Shown in pieces: positions 37,884-50,634 of a stretch of 64,000 bases of DNA (position 1 is the stretch's first letter; every line of letters starts with the position of its first letter). A model generated the notes under the pieces. That model saw nothing but the letters and a program-made list of their open reading frames with translations. It made no database searches and had not been told where the DNA came from. The translations under genes and the position numbers were made by a program. Source of the stretch: a virus; the IMG/VR virus record IMGVR_UViG_3300028734_000012, positions 32,001-96,000 of that record. One strand, written 5' to 3'.

Positions 37884-40661
37884 GTGATGAAGTTCTTTTC
37901 TTCTAAATTGAAAAGCGATGGATATAATTTAAATATTTCTTTTTCAGAAGCTAAAGAAACAAAAGAAATTGTTGCATTAGCAGATAACCAAATATTAAGA
38001 AGTATCAGAGATATTTGTAAATATCCTGTTGACTTAGAAGATGTTGAAACTTTATATCAGAGAAGAGATATGTTAAAGAAATTATCTGGTAATAATTCTA
38101 AGGAAATACAAGAGTTACAAGACCAAATTAACCACTTAATGTTTATTCCAGAATACATAACCGTTATTATGGAACACCCAAAACATTACGAGCATATATA
38201 TAGAAACGGCATTATAATTAATGGTATAAAATATAAAAGATTAAGCTGTTCAGCAGGACAAGCTAGAATTTCAACAGTAGCATTATGTAGCGAAGAAATT
38301 ATAGATGAACTAAGAGAGAGATTAGATAACGGCAGAGATAAAGCCATTCCTTTAGCGCCAAGTAAGTATAACGCTTATTTTGGACTATCTGGCTCTGCTA
38401 CATTTAAAGTAAGTGAACCTAATTTTATAGTTGTTAAAGATTATAATAATCTCGCTAAATTCATGACAAACTTTGTTACAGAAACAGCATGGGATAAAGA
38501 TGATACGATTGAGCAAAAGGAAATAGAATTAGAGATGAATAGAACTGACGGGTTAGGTCTAATCAGTCCTAGACAGGCTCAAATTTGGGCTAACGATATG
38601 GAACTAGATTATATACCATCACAGTTTATCATTCGTCAAAGCTTTCTTAAAGGCTTACTATGTACATTTGATATCCATGAATTTTGCAAAGAGAAAAACA
38701 ATAATAACTACATCGTAGATACAGTATATAAAGATAGTAGTGGCAATTACATAAAAGCAGACCTTAGAGAATACGATGTTATCATTAGCGAATCTCAATT
38801 CAAACTATGGAATGCATACCCTAATATAGAGACTTATATCGATAACTACCATAAGAATAAATTATTTTGGGGTGTGGCTCAATATTCTCCAAACCAAGCA
38901 AAGGATATATTAAAATTAAATTATCAATTTATACAAACTCTTAATTTAAATGATGAGGATGTAGAAGTATTATCTAAACAATTTGTAGAATGGATAAATG
39001 GTATTACATACAAGAATATACCATACGCACTCTTATTTCTTTTAGGAACTAATAATACTGAATTGAACATTCAAACGTATTTACAAAAAAGTGATACATA
39101 TTGGATTAAAGCTTTAATTCTAAATCCAGAGTTAATACACGATAGATATATTACTTCTAAAATATATAATCTAATTAAGGTTAAAATACAAAATGGATGT
39201 TTAGGAAATGTTATCGTAGATGGTAATTTTCAATATTTAGTTTCAGACCCATATGGATTTATGCAAGCAGTATGTGGTCAAGAAGTCACAGGCTTATTAA
39301 AGGAAGGTGAATTTTACTCTAACTACTGGAATGATAAAGATATTAAACAAGTAGATTCTATGAGAAGCCCACTTACATATAGAAGCGAACATATTATACT
39401 TAATCTTAGAAACGATAAAGAGTTAAAGAAATGGTATAAATATTGTGATTTAGGAATAATCGTAAACTATCATGGTCATGAAGTTTGCAATTGGGGCGGC
39501 GCTGATTTTGATGGAGATATTTGTGCAACAACAAGCAATAAAGTAATGATTAAAGGTGTATTCAAAAATGAACTCACTGTTTCATATGACCCACCAAAAC
39601 CTAATAAGATAGTATTTACAGAAGATGATTTATACTACGCAGACTTGTTCTCATTTGGCTCTATCATCGGTTCTATCACTAATAAAGGCAGTATTGCATA
39701 TACTATGTTGCCAGTAATAGAAGAGGAATATGGTAGGGACAGCGAAGAAGTTAAATTGATTATATCAAGATTACAACAATGTTGTAAAGCACAATCTGCT
39801 CAAATAGATAAGGCAAAGATAGGTAGAGAGGTAAAAGGTATCCCCGATGATTGGATTAAATATAAAGTTCCGTCTATTGATTCAAATGGGGAAGTGTTAA
39901 ATACTGATGAAGAGTTAGATTTAATTCAAATCCATAATCATACTCTACTAACTAAAAAACCTTATTTCTTTAAATATTTGTATGACGATACAAAAAGAAC
40001 ATATAGCAATTATATAAATACTGTAAATATGAACTGTAAAAATAAATTCTTTATGACAACAAATGAATTAGAAAATCTTAAAAGACAAACAATTGAGCAA
40101 AAAGAATTTATAGAAAACTATTATCGTTATATGCCAGTTACTATTAGTGATAGTCCAATGAATGTATTATGTAGATATATTGAATCAATTAACTTTGATA
40201 TAAAAGCTAAGTTAAAAACAGATGGTAACAATAATATATATAAGCTATATTTAAATAATAAATTTGAATTTAATCAAGATTTATACAATAAAGTAATACA
40301 AGTAATTGATGATTCATTAAAATCTGCAAGATACATATGGGCTAGTGCAAAAAATAATAAGAAAGATTATAATAACGAAGAGAAGGAGACTACCCCATAT
40401 CCATTATATGCTGAAATATTAGGTAGTAAACTGAACGAATTAAATAGTAATATATATGAATTAACAAATTATGTTGTAAAATATTTTTATGAGTATAAAC
40501 CGTCATCTAATAAGGATATATTATGGTCTGTATATGGTAAATATATCTATCATAATTTAAAGCAAAAAAATAATAATATTTGTTACTTCCCATTTCCAGA
40601 TGATAATGGAGACATTATTTATTTAGGTAAGAAATATAGTCTAAGAGAGGTGACGTTATGA
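37884..40661 (+). CDS. yonO: YonO-like single-subunit two-barrel RNA polymerase
   Basis: GGADFDGD catalytic motif; TDG.G.IS, RSP and Q.AQIDKAK motifs; SPbeta-like context; start may be CTG near 37860. Confidence 0.85.
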   Translation: MMKFFSSKLKSDGYNLNISFSEAKETKEIVALADNQILRSIRDICKYPVDLEDVETLYQRRDMLKKLSGNNSKEIQELQDQINHLMFIPEYITVIMEHPKHYEHIYRNGIIINGIKYKRLSCSAGQARISTVALCSEEIIDELRERLDNGRDKAIPLAPSKYNAYFGLSGSATFKVSEPNFIVVKDYNNLAKFMTNFVTETAWDKDDTIEQKEIELEMNRTDGLGLISPRQAQIWANDMELDYIPSQFIIRQSFLKGLLCTFDIHEFCKEKNNNNYIVDTVYKDSSGNYIKADLREYDVIISESQFKLWNAYPNIETYIDNYHKNKLFWGVAQYSPNQAKDILKLNYQFIQTLNLNDEDVEVLSKQFVEWINGITYKNIPYALLFLLGTNNTELNIQTYLQKSDTYWIKALILNPELIHDRYITSKIYNLIKVKIQNGCLGNVIVDGNFQYLVSDPYGFMQAVCGQEVTGLLKEGEFYSNYWNDKDIKQVDSMRSPLTYRSEHIILNLRNDKELKKWYKYCDLGIIVNYHGHEVCNWGGADFDGDICATTSNKVMIKGVFKNELTVSYDPPKPNKIVFTEDDLYYADLFSFGSIIGSITNKGSIAYTMLPVIEEEYGRDSEEVKLIISRLQQCCKAQSAQIDKAKIGREVKGIPDDWIKYKVPSIDSNGEVLNTDEELDLIQIHNHTLLTKKPYFFKYLYDDTKRTYSNYINTVNMNCKNKFFMTTNELENLKRQTIEQKEFIENYYRYMPVTISDSPMNVLCRYIESINFDIKAKLKTDGNNNIYKLYLNNKFEFNQDLYNKVIQVIDDSLKSARYIWASAKNNKKDYNNEEKETTPYPLYAEILGSKLNELNSNIYELTNYVVKYFYEYKPSSNKDILWSVYGKYIYHNLKQKNNNICYFPFPDDNGDIIYLGKKYSLREVTL

Positions 40662-41452
40662 TTGATATAAACCATCAAACAGAATATACTAAATATGTAT
40701 TAGAAAATGGATTTCAAAGTGATAATATTCTTATGGAATTAAAATTACTTGCTGTTTATATGAGGGATGTATTATTATACAAGCCGAAGAAACGCAAAGA
40801 AGAATTAATCAGATTTTGTAGAGAGAATTATAACGATTTTAAAGAACGCAGAGATTATTGGTTAATTAAAAAGTCACTAGGATATTCTACTAACAAAAAA
40901 AACAAATTGATTGACTTCTATGATATTAATTTATATAACAATGAAATGAAATTTATTTCTGGTCAAAATATATCAGATGATGCAAAAAGATTGTTGACGA
41001 CTTTATTAATTGAACATAAGAAAAGTGAATATCGATATAGTATCTTTCATGATGATAAATATATGTCTAACTTGTGCGGTGGTAATTCTACTAAGTATAG
41101 TTATTATAAAAAGATTAGCCATATATCAAATTCACAAGATATAAATTATCTAATTGGAGATATTGGTAATGATATTACTTTGATTGATAAAGATGCTACA
41201 CACGGATTATTCAAGATAACATTTATAAATCAAATTGTAGAACATGATACTCTATGGATGAATGTCACTGACTTTGAAAATTTAGGTTGGTATTATGATT
41301 TATACATAGATAATAAAAAAGTTGGTATTTGTAAGCAATGTGAAAAGTTATTTAAACAAACTGGTAAATATCAATTGTATTGTAAAGAATGTGCTGTTAA
41401 TATAGATAGGATTAAAGCAAGAGAAAGAATGCAAAATCTTAGAAATAAATAA
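40658..41452 (+). CDS. hypothetical protein with C-terminal Zn finger, coupled to RNAP gene
   Basis: CKQC...YCKEC; ATGA overlap. Confidence 0.75.
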   Translation: MIDINHQTEYTKYVLENGFQSDNILMELKLLAVYMRDVLLYKPKKRKEELIRFCRENYNDFKERRDYWLIKKSLGYSTNKKNKLIDFYDINLYNNEMKFISGQNISDDAKRLLTTLLIEHKKSEYRYSIFHDDKYMSNLCGGNSTKYSYYKKISHISNSQDINYLIGDIGNDITLIDKDATHGLFKITFINQIVEHDTLWMNVTDFENLGWYYDLYIDNKKVGICKQCEKLFKQTGKYQLYCKECAVNIDRIKARERMQNLRNK

Positions 41453-41825
41453 TATGTTCGATTCTTAAACTTACATAAAACCTATATTATGATTGAAAAA
41501 TTAGGTGTTGAAATTCTACCAATTACATGATAGAGAAGGGTAAATAAAATCGAGTGACTTAATCGTTACTCGATTTTTCTTTGTCAAAAATAAATTATAA
41601 AAGGATTGAATACTAATTGAAGTATGTCACTAAAAGCGAGTTTGAGTTGCTACAAAAGGCAGGATTATTAATAGCGGATAAAAACAATAAAAATTTTAAT
41701 ATTACTAGCCAGAAAAAGAAAGCCCCTAGAGGGAAACACTATGTCGAGGAAACTAAAAAGATAATGGAGTTCCTAAAAAATCTTAATAAGTAAAAGAAAA
41801 TAAATTATAAAAGGATGATAATATT

Positions 41826-43055
41826 TTGGGAAATGACCTAAGAAATATCGTTGTTGACACAAGTTCCTTAATGGAGAATGACGGTATCCTTGATGAGTTA
41901 ATCAATGTTTACAATGTTATTATTAACATCGTAGTCGTAGAAGAACTTGACAATTTAAAAACAAACAAAGATTTTGACAGAGCATTTAAAGCCAAACGCG
42001 CTATTAGAAGTTTAGAGAAGTACAAAGATTCAGTACAATTTGATTTAGTCCGTAAAGCAGATGAAGCCTTTACTCAAAATCAATATAACCTTAACGATGA
42101 TGTTATCGTTACTTGCGCAAAACTTAATAATGCATATCTAATGACAGAAGATTTAAATCTTAGAATTAAAGCAAACGTTATCGGTGTTACATGTTCTACA
42201 AAAATAGAAACATCTAATACATATAAGGGTTTTAAAAGAGTTAAATTATCTGATGTAGAAACTGCATATTTTTATGAGCATATGAACGAGAATCAATTTG
42301 ATTCGCTTATTAATGAATACATTGTTATCACTAATAATGTCGAAGCTTTCGAAGATACATATCGTTGGGACGGAAATAAATATATACCTATTAAAACAAA
42401 GAACTTAACTACTGTTGCTTTCGGTTCAGAAATTAAACCTAAAGATGTTTACCAACGTATGGTAATTGACAGTATTCTAAATAATACAATGACTGTTATC
42501 GCAGGAGAAGCAGGAAGTGGTAAAAGTCTATTAGCATTGGTAACTGCTATGTACTTAGTTGAAAATAGAAGCAGTAAATACGAGAGAATCGTTGTACTTG
42601 CTAACCCAACTAAAACCCGTGGTGCTACAGATATGGGATTCTATACTGGTAGTGCTATGGAAAAACTTATGCAATGTTCAATCGGTAATGTCTTAAACAC
42701 TAAGTTTGGTGAACGTAATGGCATTGACCAGTTGATTGCAGGAGATAAACTTAGACTTGTTAGCATGGCTGATTGCCGTGGTATGGAAGTTAGAGATGAC
42801 GAAATCCTATATATCACAGAAGCCCAAAATACAACAGTAGATTTAATGAAATTATGTCTATCAAGAGCAAGTTCAGATTGTAAGATTATTATCGAAGGTG
42901 ATTACAATTCACAAGTAGATAGTAATATGTATGAGAATAAGAACAATGGTATGAAACGTGCTATAGAGGTATTAAAAGGCGAAGATATCTTCGGATATGT
43001 CGAACTTCAAAATGTATGGAGAAGCAAAATTGCTAATCTTGTATACAAATTCTAA
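41826..43055 (+). CDS. phoH: PIN-PhoH (PhoH2/YlaK-like) protein
   Basis: PIN motifs VVDTS, EELD, NDD, TED; Walker A GEAGSGKS; RG; EAQN; GD..Q.D. Confidence 0.9.
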   Translation: MGNDLRNIVVDTSSLMENDGILDELINVYNVIINIVVVEELDNLKTNKDFDRAFKAKRAIRSLEKYKDSVQFDLVRKADEAFTQNQYNLNDDVIVTCAKLNNAYLMTEDLNLRIKANVIGVTCSTKIETSNTYKGFKRVKLSDVETAYFYEHMNENQFDSLINEYIVITNNVEAFEDTYRWDGNKYIPIKTKNLTTVAFGSEIKPKDVYQRMVIDSILNNTMTVIAGEAGSGKSLLALVTAMYLVENRSSKYERIVVLANPTKTRGATDMGFYTGSAMEKLMQCSIGNVLNTKFGERNGIDQLIAGDKLRLVSMADCRGMEVRDDEILYITEAQNTTVDLMKLCLSRASSDCKIIIEGDYNSQVDSNMYENKNNGMKRAIEVLKGEDIFGYVELQNVWRSKIANLVYKF

Positions 43056-43080
43056 AATAAATTTAAGGTGGTTAGCTTAG

Positions 43081-43686
43081 TTGGGATTAACTAAAAATGA
43101 ATCTGAATATATAGAGTTCAAACCACAAAATGGTTTGGTCGCACAAATGAAGTTATCATTGGTACTAAATCAAAGAAAGATTTTCTTATATGATGATGTA
43201 AGTGAAAATTCTATTTTTGAATGTATTTACTATCTATATAAGTTAATGGATATGGATAAACGAACAGGAGAAAAATCACCGATTGATATTTTTATTAATA
43301 GCAACGGTGGATATGTTGACGATGGTTTAACATTAATTTCTTTAATTGAGTATATGAAAGATAACGGTTATGATATAACCACAATTAATATGGGTAGAGC
43401 ATATTCTATGGGCTTTATGATATCCATCTGTGGCACTCATAGGAAGTCTTATAGATATGGCAGATACATGGTTCATGATATCTCTTCATGCGCATACGGC
43501 AAGGCACAGCAAATGCAAGAGGATATTGAGGATATGAAGATATCTAGGGCTGTGTTGTATGATATTATCCAAAAATATACTTCTATTACTTTAGAACAAC
43601 TAACAGAATGGCAAGAGAAGAAGATAGATAAATTCTTATCGGCACAAGAACTATTAGAATTAAAAGGAGTAGATGAAATATTATGA
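43081..43686 (+). CDS. clpP: ClpP-like protease
   Basis: INSNGG, AYSMG (Ser), MVH (His), DKFLSAQE (Asp). Confidence 0.85.
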   Translation: MGLTKNESEYIEFKPQNGLVAQMKLSLVLNQRKIFLYDDVSENSIFECIYYLYKLMDMDKRTGEKSPIDIFINSNGGYVDDGLTLISLIEYMKDNGYDITTINMGRAYSMGFMISICGTHRKSYRYGRYMVHDISSCAYGKAQQMQEDIEDMKISRAVLYDIIQKYTSITLEQLTEWQEKKIDKFLSAQELLELKGVDEIL

Positions 43687-44058: not shown

Positions 44059-44274
44059 TTGACAAATTAATTGGATTATACTATAATATATATAGAAACA
44101 AAAATACATATTAAAAAAAAGAATTTTTAATTAATTTAGAAAACTACTTGACAAACAATATAAATTATACTATAATATATATAGAGACCAAGTAAATAAC
44201 AAAACTTAATAAAAAAAAGAATTTTTAAAAAGTTTTAAAAATTACTTGACAAACACTACAAATTATACTATAAT
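44059..44274 (+). promoter_or_regulatory. three tandem sigmaA promoters in ~90-bp repeats
   Basis: TTGACA-17-TATAAT at 44059, 44148 and 44246. Confidence 0.85.
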
Positions 44275-44974: not shown

Positions 44975-44987
44975 TGACGTGATTTAA

Positions 44988-45086
44988 ATAGGTTTTATAT
45001 TATAATTGCAATTATAATATAAGTAATTAATTTTATTACCACAATTAATAAAATTCCCTATAATATCTTTTATTGTGGAAAGGATA
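44988..45086 (+). promoter_or_regulatory. structured HNH leader with SD-sequestering kissing loop, copy A
   Basis: Homologous to 48039-48136 with compensatory changes. Confidence 0.7.
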
Positions 45087-45092
45087 ATAATT

Positions 45093-46619: not shown

Positions 46620-46691
46620 TCTGGTGTAACACAACGGTAGTGTAATTCCCTGTTAAGGAAAAGGCTGTTGGTTCAAGTCCAACCACCAGAG
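46620..46691 (+). tRNA. tRNA-Asn(GTT), no encoded CCA
   Basis: TCTGGTG/CACCAGA; CTGTTAA loop; TTCAAGT. Confidence 0.9.
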
Positions 46692-46692
46692 C

Positions 46693-46765
46693 GTTCCACA
46701 ATTTACAGTAACCTTTACGTGGTGTGGAATATCAACTATCTAAATTGATAGGCTAATAACTGTAA
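46693..46765 (+). ncRNA. HDV-like (theta-type, tRNA-associated) self-cleaving ribozyme
   Basis: P1 GTTCCAC/GTGGAAT (G1-U wobble), P2 TTACAGT/ACTGTAA, P3 ACC/GGT, L3 TTTACGT, P4 CTATC/GATAG, J4/2 GCTAA. Confidence 0.8.
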
Positions 46766-46804
46766 TTATTAATAATAGGTATATAATCATAATAGAGAAA
46801 ACAT

Positions 46805-46878
46805 AGCACCATCGAATAAAAGTAATTCGCAAGGTTCTCAACCTTGTAATCTGGTGGCAGAATCCAGTGGTGTTACCA
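46805..46878 (+). tRNA. tRNA-Glu(CTC), atypical T loop
   Basis: CAAGG-TTCTCAA-CCTTG; T loop GGCAGAA; CCA. Confidence 0.7.
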
Positions 46879-46882
46879 ACAT

Positions 46883-46958
46883 GGCACATTAGGCAAGTGG
46901 ACTAAGCCGTCACCCTTTCACGGTGAAGACACCGTTTCAATTACGGTATGTGTCTCCA
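46883..46958 (+). tRNA. tRNA-Glu(TTC)
   Basis: TCACC-CTTTCAC-GGTGA; CCA. Confidence 0.9.
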
Positions 46959-47010
46959 TAGTTCTCTTTTAGTGCTTTTCTATCTTTGCAAATAGTAAAA
47001 GCGCATTTAT

Positions 47011-47093
47011 GTCGAAGTGATGGAATGCATACATGCTAGTTTTAGAAGCTAGTGCCGAAAGGATTAGGAGTTCAAATCTCCTCTTCGACACCA
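47011..47093 (+). tRNA. tRNA-Leu(TAG)
   Basis: CTAGT-TTTAGAA-GCTAG; variable arm; CCA. Confidence 0.9.
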
Positions 47094-47122
47094 TTGACAA
47101 TCTGGAAAGACAGATAAAATAT

Positions 47123-47197
47123 GGAAGATTAGCTTATGTGGTAAAGCAGTAGTCCGAAGAACTACGGAATCCTATTCGAACGAGGAATGTTCCACCA
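47123..47197 (+). tRNA. tRNA-Phe(GAA)
   Basis: GTAGT-CCGAAGA-ACTAC; one acceptor mismatch; CCA. Confidence 0.75.
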
Positions 47198-47321
47198 GTT
47201 GAACAACGCAGGATACATATACGTTATAGGAGTAGGCACTAGTGCCCGCACCAAATTCTAAAAAATTAAGTAAATAGAGTGATATCCCTATCTGAAAGAT
47301 TTTTAAGTGTATCCAATATAT

Positions 47322-47396
47322 GGGGTCTGTAGTGTAATGGTAGCACGGAAAATTGTGATTTTTTAAGTAACAGTTCAATTCTGTTCATTCCCACCA
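47322..47396 (+). tRNA. tRNA-His(GTG)
   Basis: G-1; GAAAA-TTGTGAT-TTTTT; CCA; two acceptor mismatches. Confidence 0.8.
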
Positions 47397-47427
47397 AGCA
47401 ATAAGCACGGCTTTGTAGATGCTTTTA

Positions 47428-47486
47428 AAGACACACACAGCGATACAATAATAATAAAATATTTGCTTTTTATTAACTGTGTCTTG
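47428..47486 (+). ncRNA. ACAGC-stem RNA copy 3
   Basis: AAGACACA-CACAGCGA...TGTGTCTTG. Confidence 0.55.
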
Positions 47487-47565
47487 TTATCTAATTGGGT
47501 TCGTAACCTCAATTTCTTTGCGGCGAAGAGTTTAAATATGAGCCGAAAATAAGTTACGATTATAC

Positions 47566-47655
47566 GGAGAATAAACCAGACAGGCGAACTGGAACTGCCT
47601 TGAAAACAGATTGATGTTTAACAGCATTGGGTTTCGAGTACTCTGTTCTCCGCCA
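47566..47655 (+). tRNA. tRNA-Ser(TGA)
   Basis: GGAGAAT/GTTCTCC; CTTGAAA loop; long variable arm; GCCA. Confidence 0.85.
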
Positions 47656-47764
47656 AATTAGTGTGAAAATGGAACAACCACGCTATCTTACCTATAGAGA
47701 GTTTAAATAAATATAGGTGTTGACCTAATTAGGGTAGTAAAACTAATTTGTTGTTCCAAAATAT

Positions 47765-47840
47765 GTACTATTAGTGTAAATGGCAAGCACTTCTGCCTTC
47801 CAAGCAGAGAATTTCGGTTCAAGTCCGAAATGGTACACCA
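47765..47840 (+). tRNA. tRNA-Gly(TCC)
   Basis: TCTGC-CTTCCAA-GCAGA; CCA. Confidence 0.9.
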
Positions 47841-47891
47841 AACCTACTTTTCTGTTGCTTGGCTGTAGATAATGTGGAACAGAATTTTTAT

Positions 47892-47963
47892 CGAGGATGA
47901 GTTGTAATGGTATGCATGTGTACCTTGGACGTATGCGGAGAGGTTCGATTCCTACATCTTCGA
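47892..47963 (+). tRNA. tRNA-Pro(TGG), no encoded CCA
   Basis: CGAGGAT/ATCTTCG-A; CTTGGAC loop; imperfect D and T stems. Confidence 0.7.
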
Positions 47964-48035
47964 GTTAGACAAGATAATATACCTCTATGTGGTGTCAAAC
48001 ATCAACTGTTATTTATAACAGGCTAAATTATTATC
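47964..48035 (+). ncRNA. HDV-like (theta-type, tRNA-associated) self-cleaving ribozyme
   Basis: P1 GTTAGAC/GTCAAAC, P2 GATAATA/TATTATC, P3 ACC/GGT, L3 TCTATGT, P4 CTGTTA/TAACAG, J4/2 GCTAA; starts at the base after the tRNA discriminator. Confidence 0.8.
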
Positions 48036-48038
48036 AAA

Positions 48039-48136
48039 ATAGGTTTTTATATAGTGTTGCAACATTATATAAAGTAATTAAACTAATTGCTACTATCAAT
48101 TAGTTTCCCTATTAAATCTTTTATAGTAGAAAGGAT
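48039..48136 (+). promoter_or_regulatory. structured HNH leader with SD-sequestering kissing loop, copy B
   Basis: Homologous to 44988-45086. Confidence 0.7.
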
Positions 48137-48140
48137 AGAA

Positions 48141-48965
48141 ATGTTAAGTCAAGAAGAATTTGAAAAAAGAATATCTATTACATTTAATGATACGATTGAG
48201 ATTTTATCTGATTATAAGGGTAAGAGAAAAGACATAGAACTTAAATGTAAGAAATGCGGTTATCAATGGAATGTAGTTGCACAAAATGCAATGTATGGAA
48301 AACAAAGAAACTGTCCAGAATGTGAAATTGATAAAAAGAAAACAGGAGATTCTATAGTATGCGCTAATTGTGGCAAGAAAATATATAGAGTAAAGTCAAA
48401 GATGAGTAAATCAAAAAGTGGCTTGTACTTCTGTAATAGGAATTGTTCAAGTACATATTTTAATCATTCTAGTAATATAGTATCTATAAATAATTATAGA
48501 GATAAAGCTATAGATTATTATGGTGCAAAGTGTGAACTATGTGGAGACAATGAAGATATAAGATTATTAGATGTACATCATATTGATGAAAACAGATGTA
48601 ATAATGAAATTAATAATCTAATTGTTTTATGTGTTAAATGCCATGCTAAAATTACAAGAGGTATAGATAAACTTATTGATAGAACTCTGATAATAAATGA
48701 AGATAATATTGATAAAAATAACTCTGTGCATTGTAAGCCAGAAACAGTACATAAAAAATATTGTAAAATAAATTGTTATGATAAAACAGATAATCTAATA
48801 AAATCATTTAATAAAATGTCTGATGCATTAGATTGGTTAAAACAATTTTACCAAAATCCATCATCTACTCATATAATAGAATGTATCTTACATAAGAGAA
48901 AAAGTGCATATAATTATATTTGGGTTGGAGTGACTATAAATAAAAAGATACTTACAGCTATATAA
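48141..48965 (+). CDS. HNH endonuclease with Zn ribbons and NUMOD1-like C-terminus
   Basis: LDVHHID.NR.NN.INNL.VLC..CH; SAYNYIW; ATG 48141 follows AAAGGA SD. Confidence 0.85.
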   Translation: MLSQEEFEKRISITFNDTIEILSDYKGKRKDIELKCKKCGYQWNVVAQNAMYGKQRNCPECEIDKKKTGDSIVCANCGKKIYRVKSKMSKSKSGLYFCNRNCSSTYFNHSSNIVSINNYRDKAIDYYGAKCELCGDNEDIRLLDVHHIDENRCNNEINNLIVLCVKCHAKITRGIDKLIDRTLIINEDNIDKNNSVHCKPETVHKKYCKINCYDKTDNLIKSFNKMSDALDWLKQFYQNPSSTHIIECILHKRKSAYNYIWVGVTINKKILTAI

Positions 48966-50427: not shown

Positions 50428-50432
50428 AATTA

Positions 50433-50488
50433 AAGATACTTACAGCTATTAAATAAAATCAAGCTTTATTGATAAAAATAGTATCTTG
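50433..50488 (+). ncRNA. ACAGC-stem RNA copy 6
   Basis: AAGATACT-TACAGCTA...AGTATCTTG. Confidence 0.6.
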
Positions 50489-50605: not shown

Positions 50606-50634
50606 AAACACCTATTTTTTATAGGTGTTTTTTT
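50606..50634 (+). terminator. terminator of the tRNA operon
   Basis: AAACACCTAT/ATAGGTGTTT stem plus T tract. Confidence 0.75.

Follow-up and report, generated by a model that had tools for sequence, protein, structure and literature searches.

Two elements that fold like the ribozyme of hepatitis delta virus (HDV) lie directly behind two transfer RNA (tRNA) genes that lack an encoded CCA, tRNA-Asn and tRNA-Pro, in a tRNA array of the IMG/VR virus record IMGVR_UViG_3300028734_000012. Sequence, structure, position and comparison with relatives support their identification as HDV-fold ribozymes whose cleavage site adjoins a tRNA 3′ end. We propose, with a probability of about 0.85, that both are active HDV-type self-cleaving ribozymes, which would be carried on a long transcript of the tRNA array and act as cutters of tRNA 3′ trailers. 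The window, that is, the whole stretch of DNA that was analysed, is 64,000 nucleotides long and corresponds to bases 32001–96000 of a record of 176,332 bp (30.6% G+C, estimated completeness 89%); coordinates are those of the window unless they are marked as genome coordinates. The record encodes T4 gp30.3-like, PhoH, ClpP, homing endonuclease and RNA-repair genes, as a tailed double-stranded DNA phage would.

With default settings, ARAGORN predicts 13 tRNAs in the window; Rfam matches bring in two more, a tRNA-Phe at 47123 and a tRNA-Pro at 47893, the latter weak. With relaxed settings (-ps90, -ps80), ARAGORN gives 17 plausible tRNA genes on the + strand, 15 of which are backed by Rfam tRNA matches. 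Reading their 3′ ends shows that CCA is encoded by 15 of the 17, the exceptions being tRNA-Asn(GUU) and tRNA-Pro(UGG), which reproduces what an earlier note on this DNA had reported. Within the array, both CCA-less tRNAs are followed by a ribozyme, at a spacing of 1 nt for Asn and 0 nt for Pro, and every tRNA that encodes CCA is without one. The discriminator of tRNA-Asn, G73, is at 46691 and is followed by a single C at 46692, which could serve as C74.

The ribozymes are detected by two covariance models. The Rfam model RF02682, run with cmscan, matches each of them over its full length (1–74 of 74), with E-values for the Asn and Pro copies of 8.9e-5 and 1.4e-3 in a search of 6.5 kb, and of 2e-5 and 3e-4 in a search of 1.5 kb. 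The Infernal search with an HDV descriptor that the earlier note had put forward as a check thus finds both sites, albeit with scores under the 44-bit cut-off of the family. These are the only two credible RF02682 matches in the whole 176-kb genome; a third one (14 bits, genome 10869–10943, minus strand) was rejected, as it lies in a coding region and has no core motifs. The second model, R1, was built from relatives. Using a DNA pattern that joins a tRNA T-loop to the ribozyme core, we collected tRNA-linked ribozymes from IMG/VR at more than 115 loci, which is a lower bound; the sampling leans towards a single core motif, and all the counts of relatives given in this text hold among the matches listed. 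R1 rests on 26 unique P4-bearing ribozymes of other phages, none of them from this genome. It returns exactly the two intervals in which the earlier note had drawn double pseudoknots, and its next best match in the 176-kb genome scores at most 17 bits. The two tRNAs and the elements of the ribozymes, all on the + strand, are as follows.

46620–46692, +: tRNA-Asn(GUU) without CCA, ending G73-C (ARAGORN; Rfam tRNA 65.4 bits)
46693–46765, +: HDV-like ribozyme 1 (Asn), 73 nt (RF02682 39.4 bits at 46693–46767; R1 46.8 bits; helix parse)
46693–46699/46724–46730, +: ribozyme 1 P1, 7/7 paired, first pair G1.U
46703–46709/46759–46765, +: ribozyme 1 P2, 7 bp
46711–46713/46721–46723, +: ribozyme 1 P3, ACC/GGU
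46714–46720, +: ribozyme 1 L3, UUUACGU
U46716:A46731 plus U46715.U46732, +: ribozyme 1 P1.1
46736–46740/46747–46751, +: ribozyme 1 P4, 5 bp
46753–46758, +: ribozyme 1 J4/2, CUAAUA
46753, +: predicted catalytic cytosine (C75 equivalent) of ribozyme 1, first position of J4/2, corresponding in the alignments with RF02682 and R1 to the invariant C of GGCUAA
47892–47963, +: tRNA-Pro(UGG), low-scoring, without CCA, C1-G72, A73 at 47963 (ARAGORN -ps90; Rfam tRNA 27.1 bits, with a register that is shorter by one base)
47964–48035, +: HDV-like ribozyme 2 (Pro), 72 nt (RF02682 34.2 bits at 47964–48033; R1 42.6 bits; helix parse)
47964–47970/47994–48000, +: ribozyme 2 P1, 6/7 paired with one A.A mismatch, first pair G1-C
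47973–47979/48029–48035, +: ribozyme 2 P2, 7 bp
47981–47983/47991–47993, +: ribozyme 2 P3, ACC/GGU
47984–47990, +: ribozyme 2 L3, UCUAUGU
U47986:A48001 plus C47985.U48002, +: ribozyme 2 P1.1
48006–48011/48016–48021, +: ribozyme 2 P4, 6 bp
48023–48028, +: ribozyme 2 J4/2, CUAAAU
48023, +: cytosine predicted to be catalytic in ribozyme 2 (from the alignments with RF02682 and R1)

Both copies have the canonical order P1, P2, P3, P4 of the nested double pseudoknot. J1/4 is AUCAA in both, and the helix parse confirms that they share the motifs ACC-UYUAYGU-GGU, AUCAA and GGCUAA. The first U and the sixth G of L3, which in HDV-like ribozymes form the metal-binding reverse wobble, are kept, and in both copies an A-rich linker follows the cytosine that opens J4/2. 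In the nested minimum free energy folds, each tRNA and its ribozyme are separate domains. As the earlier note had noticed, P1, P2 and P4 differ between the copies and nevertheless pair: the changes in P1 and P4, which differ only in part, are compensatory, and the two P2 sequences are unrelated. P2 is outside both covariance models. The same is seen in the family at large. In the alignment of 26 sequences, read with the pseudoknotted structure, 95.5% of the cells are paired, versus 25–51% in slid controls, and 16 of the 19 pairs show changes on both sides, P2 and P1.1 included; RNAalifold recovered P1 and P3 from this alignment.

The association with CCA-less tRNAs extends to other phages. In the sampled loci, 66 ribozyme-linked tRNAs lack CCA and one has it, while among the unlinked tRNAs of the same strand CCA is absent from 296 and present in 355 (Fisher p 4e-20 versus the linked ones). 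In many loci all the unlinked tRNAs encode CCA (25:0, 26:0 and 18:0, for instance) and the single linked tRNA does not. The predicted cut falls directly 3′ of the discriminator in 60 of 74 unique tRNA-linked relatives (81%), and one base further in 7 of them; like the Asn copy, 6 of these 7 have a C as the additional base. The CCA rule is seldom broken, but one such case is found in the phage G003 (L082, 10640–10735), where a ribozyme with a UU/AU P1.1 stands behind a tRNA-like 3′ end with CCA. In bacteria, RNase Z is the endonuclease that cuts CCA-less tRNA precursors right after the discriminator, whereupon CCA is added. The CCA rule and the position of the cut fit the idea that the ribozyme stands in for this RNase Z cut. 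We regard the CCA rule across phage loci as a modest addition to the published picture.

The dense tRNA array occupies 44.4–50.6 kb of the window, on the + strand, and is interspersed with four homing-endonuclease-type genes. Two features delimit it:

44059–44274, +: three sigma-70 promoters in tandem, each a perfect consensus match, upstream of the tRNA array (consensus scan only)
50606–50630, +: strong intrinsic-terminator-like hairpin and T run, 3′ of the last tRNA (Trp)

Each of the three promoters consists of TTGACA, a 17-nt spacer and TATAAT (12/12 matches), and they are about 90–100 bp apart. They are likely to mark the start of a polycistronic tRNA precursor, and the hairpin is likely to mark its end; the array is therefore probably transcribed as one long precursor. 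On this transcript, we propose that the nested double pseudoknot would fold as RNA polymerase passes each element. C46753 or C48023, together with Mg2+, would then catalyse the attack by the 2′-OH of the preceding nucleotide, and the chain would be severed at 46692/46693 and at 47963/47964. The released products would be a tRNA-Asn ending in G73-C and a tRNA-Pro ending in A73, each with a 2′,3′-cyclic phosphate, and the ribozyme would remain as the 5′ end of the downstream RNA. The ribozyme would so replace the RNase Z-type endonuclease cut that CCA-less precursors require, and the other 15 tRNAs, whose CCA is encoded, could mature by ordinary exonuclease trimming.

HDV-type cleavage leaves a 2′,3′-cyclic phosphate (PMC13635239), which must be removed before CCA can be added. 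This could be done by a host enzyme or by RNA-repair proteins of the phage, and a host CCA-adding enzyme would complete the tail. A PF01743 CCA-adding enzyme was found neither in this record nor in the genomes G002, G003, G004 and G006. As for repair, four genes of the record at genome 161.9–172.2 kb (L021, L022) come into question: those of a DRB0094-type RNA ligase that has a PHA02142 OB domain, of a phosphatase-like HAD_SAK_2 protein next to it (genome 171377–171787), of a homologue of T4 gp30.3, and of a PNK-like kinase of the AAA_33 family (301 amino acids). G002, G003, G004 and G006 have two PF09414 ligases each. One may wonder whether, in phages whose other tRNA genes all encode CCA, the few CCA-less tRNAs coupled to a ribozyme (Asn and Pro in this case) follow a maturation route of their own, in which the cut and its cyclic phosphate are followed by healing by the phage repair proteins and CCA addition by the host. 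We consider this unlikely. If it were true, the supply of tRNA-Asn and tRNA-Pro would be conditional on the repair module, and the route could be a timing switch, or a cap that protects the tRNAs against host 3′ exonucleases or tRNA-targeting defences until they are needed.

The closest published system is that of theta ribozymes, which are minimal, P4-less HDV-like ribozymes of gut Caudoviricetes whose cleavage site abuts tRNA 3′ ends (PMC10879173, Kienbeck et al. 2024, Nat Commun 15:1559). Four of them self-cleaved in vitro, only 4.5% of the associated tRNAs encode CCA, and the DRB0094-family RNA ligase is enriched 140-fold in the genomes that host them (PMC10879173). The functional reading of the earlier note, according to which the two elements trim tRNA 3′ trailers as theta ribozymes do, is therefore the published one; fold, position, the CCA rule and these published analogues support it, and the cleavage that it implies is predicted. 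The likeness includes the setting (large genomes of tailed phages, CCA-less clients, and a cleavage site at 1 and 0 nt from the tRNA 3′ end, where theta ribozymes have it within 5 nt and mostly at 1 nt), the core (P3 ACC/GGU, L3 U-NN-ACGU, J4/2 CUAA) and the presence of a DRB0094-family RNA ligase in the genome. The architecture is different: theta ribozymes have a loop of about 6 nt where P4 would be, and two pairs in P1.1, whereas the copies described here have a P4 of 5 or 6 bp and a single Watson–Crick pair in P1.1. From P1.1 to J4/2 there are 20 nt, versus about 6 nt in theta entries.

In sequence and structure, the best match to the two copies is drz-Fpra-1 from Faecalibacterium prausnitzii (RF02682), with which they share the P3–L3 core, the CAAC lead-in to P4, GGCUAA and a similar size. 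However, the classic drz-Fpra-1 copies that were retrieved sit behind a hairpin in leader-like regions rather than behind tRNAs, have GG or AG after P1 (and hence two P1.1 pairs) and are richer in GC, and the copies in the window score below the cut-off of the family. Compared with RNase Z, the likeness lies in an endonucleolytic cut right after the discriminator of CCA-less tRNAs, followed by CCA addition; the difference is that RNase Z is a protein that acts in trans and leaves a 3′-OH, whereas the ribozyme would act in cis and leave a 2′,3′-cyclic phosphate, which calls for an extra healing step.

The earlier note regarded three traits of the two copies as unusual, and the comparison with relatives does not bear this out. 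The retention of P4 is common: of the 81 unique tRNA-linked ribozymes parsed from the IMG/VR sample, no fewer than 27 show P4 as a clear hairpin, while 45 are of the minimal type. P4-bearing copies also occur behind CCA-less tRNAs in two unrelated large phages. In the stretch of G002 that was read (a complete genome of 167 kb), 20 of 21 tRNAs have CCA and the only one without it, tRNA-Gln, has a P4-bearing ribozyme directly behind it (0 nt), and in G003 the three CCA-less tRNAs (Ile, Pro and Glu) each have a ribozyme behind them. None of the G002 and G003 copies that were scored reaches the RF02682 cut-off, so routine Rfam annotation misses them. We rejected a common ancestry of the tRNA-Pro-plus-ribozyme unit with its counterpart in G003, the tRNAs not being notably alike. 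At another place in G002 (L070, 1029–2241), only the 3′ half of a tRNA precedes the ribozyme, with the end of a PD-(D/E)XK endonuclease gene just upstream and, 25 nt downstream of the ribozyme, the start of a GIY-YIG endonuclease gene. The tRNA gene here may be split or contain an intron.

Regarding P1.1, which in the HDV-like scheme has two pairs between L3 and J1/4, the reduction to one U-A pair, accompanied by U.U (Asn) or C.U (Pro), stands. The UU/AU combination is nonetheless also that of 4 of the 74 census sequences and of two G003 copies, and crystallised HDV ribozymes with a weak P1.1, among them one of Ackermannviridae (BK037802), cleave at 4.2 and 9.3 per min (PMC13635239). These fast ribozymes, which are compared here by the make-up of P1.1 only, stack U:A on either a cis U.U, like the Asn copy, or a C.U, like the Pro copy, and both bear a P4. 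It is equally true that no suppressor tRNA is involved, the clients being tRNA-Asn and tRNA-Pro, but this is the usual case, since, next to published theta ribozymes, only one tRNA in five is a suppressor and the other four fifths are not (PMC10879173). The genome does have an amber suppressor tRNA(CUA), in a second cluster of nine tRNAs outside the window (genome 5727–7346, minus strand); its CCA is encoded and it has no ribozyme. A link with stop-codon recoding was rejected: in this genome, TAG read-through opens no more frame than TGA read-through, and the fact that no recoding is seen and that the suppressor tRNA is without a ribozyme is another difference from theta ribozymes.

Several observations weigh against the proposal that both copies are active. 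Both score below the curated gathering threshold of RF02682 (39.4 and 34.2 versus 44 bits). In the Pro copy, P1 is interrupted midway by an A.A mismatch, P1.1 includes C.U, and L3 has U where C is usual; cleavage by this copy may for these reasons be slow or impaired. The tRNA-Pro itself, with its poor score of 27 bits, could be a decaying gene. The expected Mg2+-dependent cleavage at both sites is deduced from sequence and fold. In addition, no close relative was found: megablast and blastn searches of cultured phages gave tRNA-level matches only, two DNA patterns designed for this ribozyme variant gave nothing in IMG/VR and metagenomes, bar one false positive in a coding region, a neighbouring protein of 530 amino acids used as a query retrieved no relative, and the YonO-like RNA polymerase retrieved one 29-kb fragment (57% identity) without a ribozyme. 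The conservation of these two copies over time can therefore not be shown.

It might follow from the defects of the Pro copy that one or both ribozymes, this one especially, are decayed relics that no longer cleave, the CCA-less tRNAs being either non-functional or processed by the RNase Z of the host. A second tRNA-Pro(UGG)-like gene elsewhere in the genome would be in keeping with the loss of the one in the array. However, all the positions of the catalytic core are intact in both copies, the same types of weak P1.1 are fast in vitro (PMC13635239), and the perfect pairing of P2 (7/7) and P4 in spite of unrelated sequences argues for ongoing selection. We judge decay to be decidedly improbable. 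The second tRNA-Pro(UGG)-like gene (genome 7271–7346, minus strand) has neither CCA nor ribozyme and lies 5 nt upstream of a tRNA-Tyr, whose cut by RNase P would leave on it a trailer of 5 nt.

Another possibility is that the ribozymes mainly serve the RNA downstream of the cut, in that a structured end with a 5′-OH resists 5′-end-dependent decay, the release of the tRNA being a by-product; for copy 2, this RNA would be the messenger RNA of an HNH endonuclease gene.

48037–48965, +: 106-nt leader (a repeat) and HNH endonuclease gene (Pfam HNH), starting two bases after ribozyme 2; a separate unit

The last base of ribozyme 2 is 48035 and the HNH leader starts at 48037, and in G002 the GIY-YIG gene lies 25 nt after one ribozyme and a NUMOD1 remnant follows another. 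On the contrary, ribozyme 1 is followed by only 40 nt and another tRNA, and the second copy of the HNH leader, at 44986, is behind a CCA-bearing tRNA-Ile, with no ribozyme. Moreover, the near-absolute link to CCA-less tRNAs and the cut at the discriminator in 81% of the relatives point to the upstream tRNA as the client. This makes a role that is mainly downstream very improbable.

The same neighbourhood could suggest that ribozyme and homing-endonuclease gene form one mobile cassette, which settles at tRNA 3′ ends and mends what it damages there. The array does contain four homing-endonuclease-type genes, one of which abuts ribozyme 2, and similar adjacencies are seen in G002. The repeated unit, however, is a 106-nt sequence (44986–45091 and 48037–48142, +, 72% identity) that forms the leader of two different HNH endonuclease genes; it starts after ribozyme 2, and its other copy has no ribozyme, so the ribozyme belongs to the tRNA and not to the endonuclease cassette. 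Besides, no endonuclease gene lies downstream of ribozyme 1 or of the copies in G003, and a displaced tRNA 3′ end, which was looked for after the HNH gene, was not found. We rejected the cassette, which has hardly any chance of being correct. An exact 18-nt repeat (AAAGATACTTACAGCTAT) is shared by the last codons of the HNH gene (48944–48961, +) and the spacer after tRNA-Arg (50432–50449, +); perhaps it is what remains of the spacer that received the HNH gene. Last, a chance resemblance to the HDV fold, which the scores under the Rfam gathering threshold might suggest, is effectively refuted by two full-length matches on the strand of the tRNAs, 1 and 0 nt past the only CCA-less tRNAs of the array, with E-values of 1e-5 to 1e-3 from two models and a P2 that neither of them includes and that is 7/7 paired in both copies.

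Some other features of the region are worth mentioning. Just upstream of the array (37884–43686) are a 925-amino-acid protein with a match to Pfam RdRP (PF05183), a YonO-like single-subunit RNA polymerase, as well as a PIN–PhoH fusion and a ClpP protease. Three low-scoring tRNAs, which are seen only with relaxed settings or by Rfam, all encode CCA: Glu(CUC) at 46804–46878, Phe(GAA) at 47123–47197 and Ser(UGA) at 47566–47655. The region of tRNA-Ser(UGA) is 76.5% identical to an unannotated stretch of Synechococcus phage BUCT-ZZ01.

The two copies are clean P4-bearing examples of the tRNA-trimming principle that was published in 2024, rather than a new kind of system. What they bring to it is, on the one hand, the contrast in CCA within one genome, which sharpens the functional logic beyond the published statistic and fits a substitution for the RNase Z cut. 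On the other hand, they indicate that a sizeable share of these ribozymes escapes both the minimal theta motif and the Rfam threshold, about one third of the sampled tRNA-linked copies having kept P4 and none of those scored reaching the RF02682 cut-off. A broader model could let annotators mark such ribozymes and correct tRNA 3′ ends in phage genomes.

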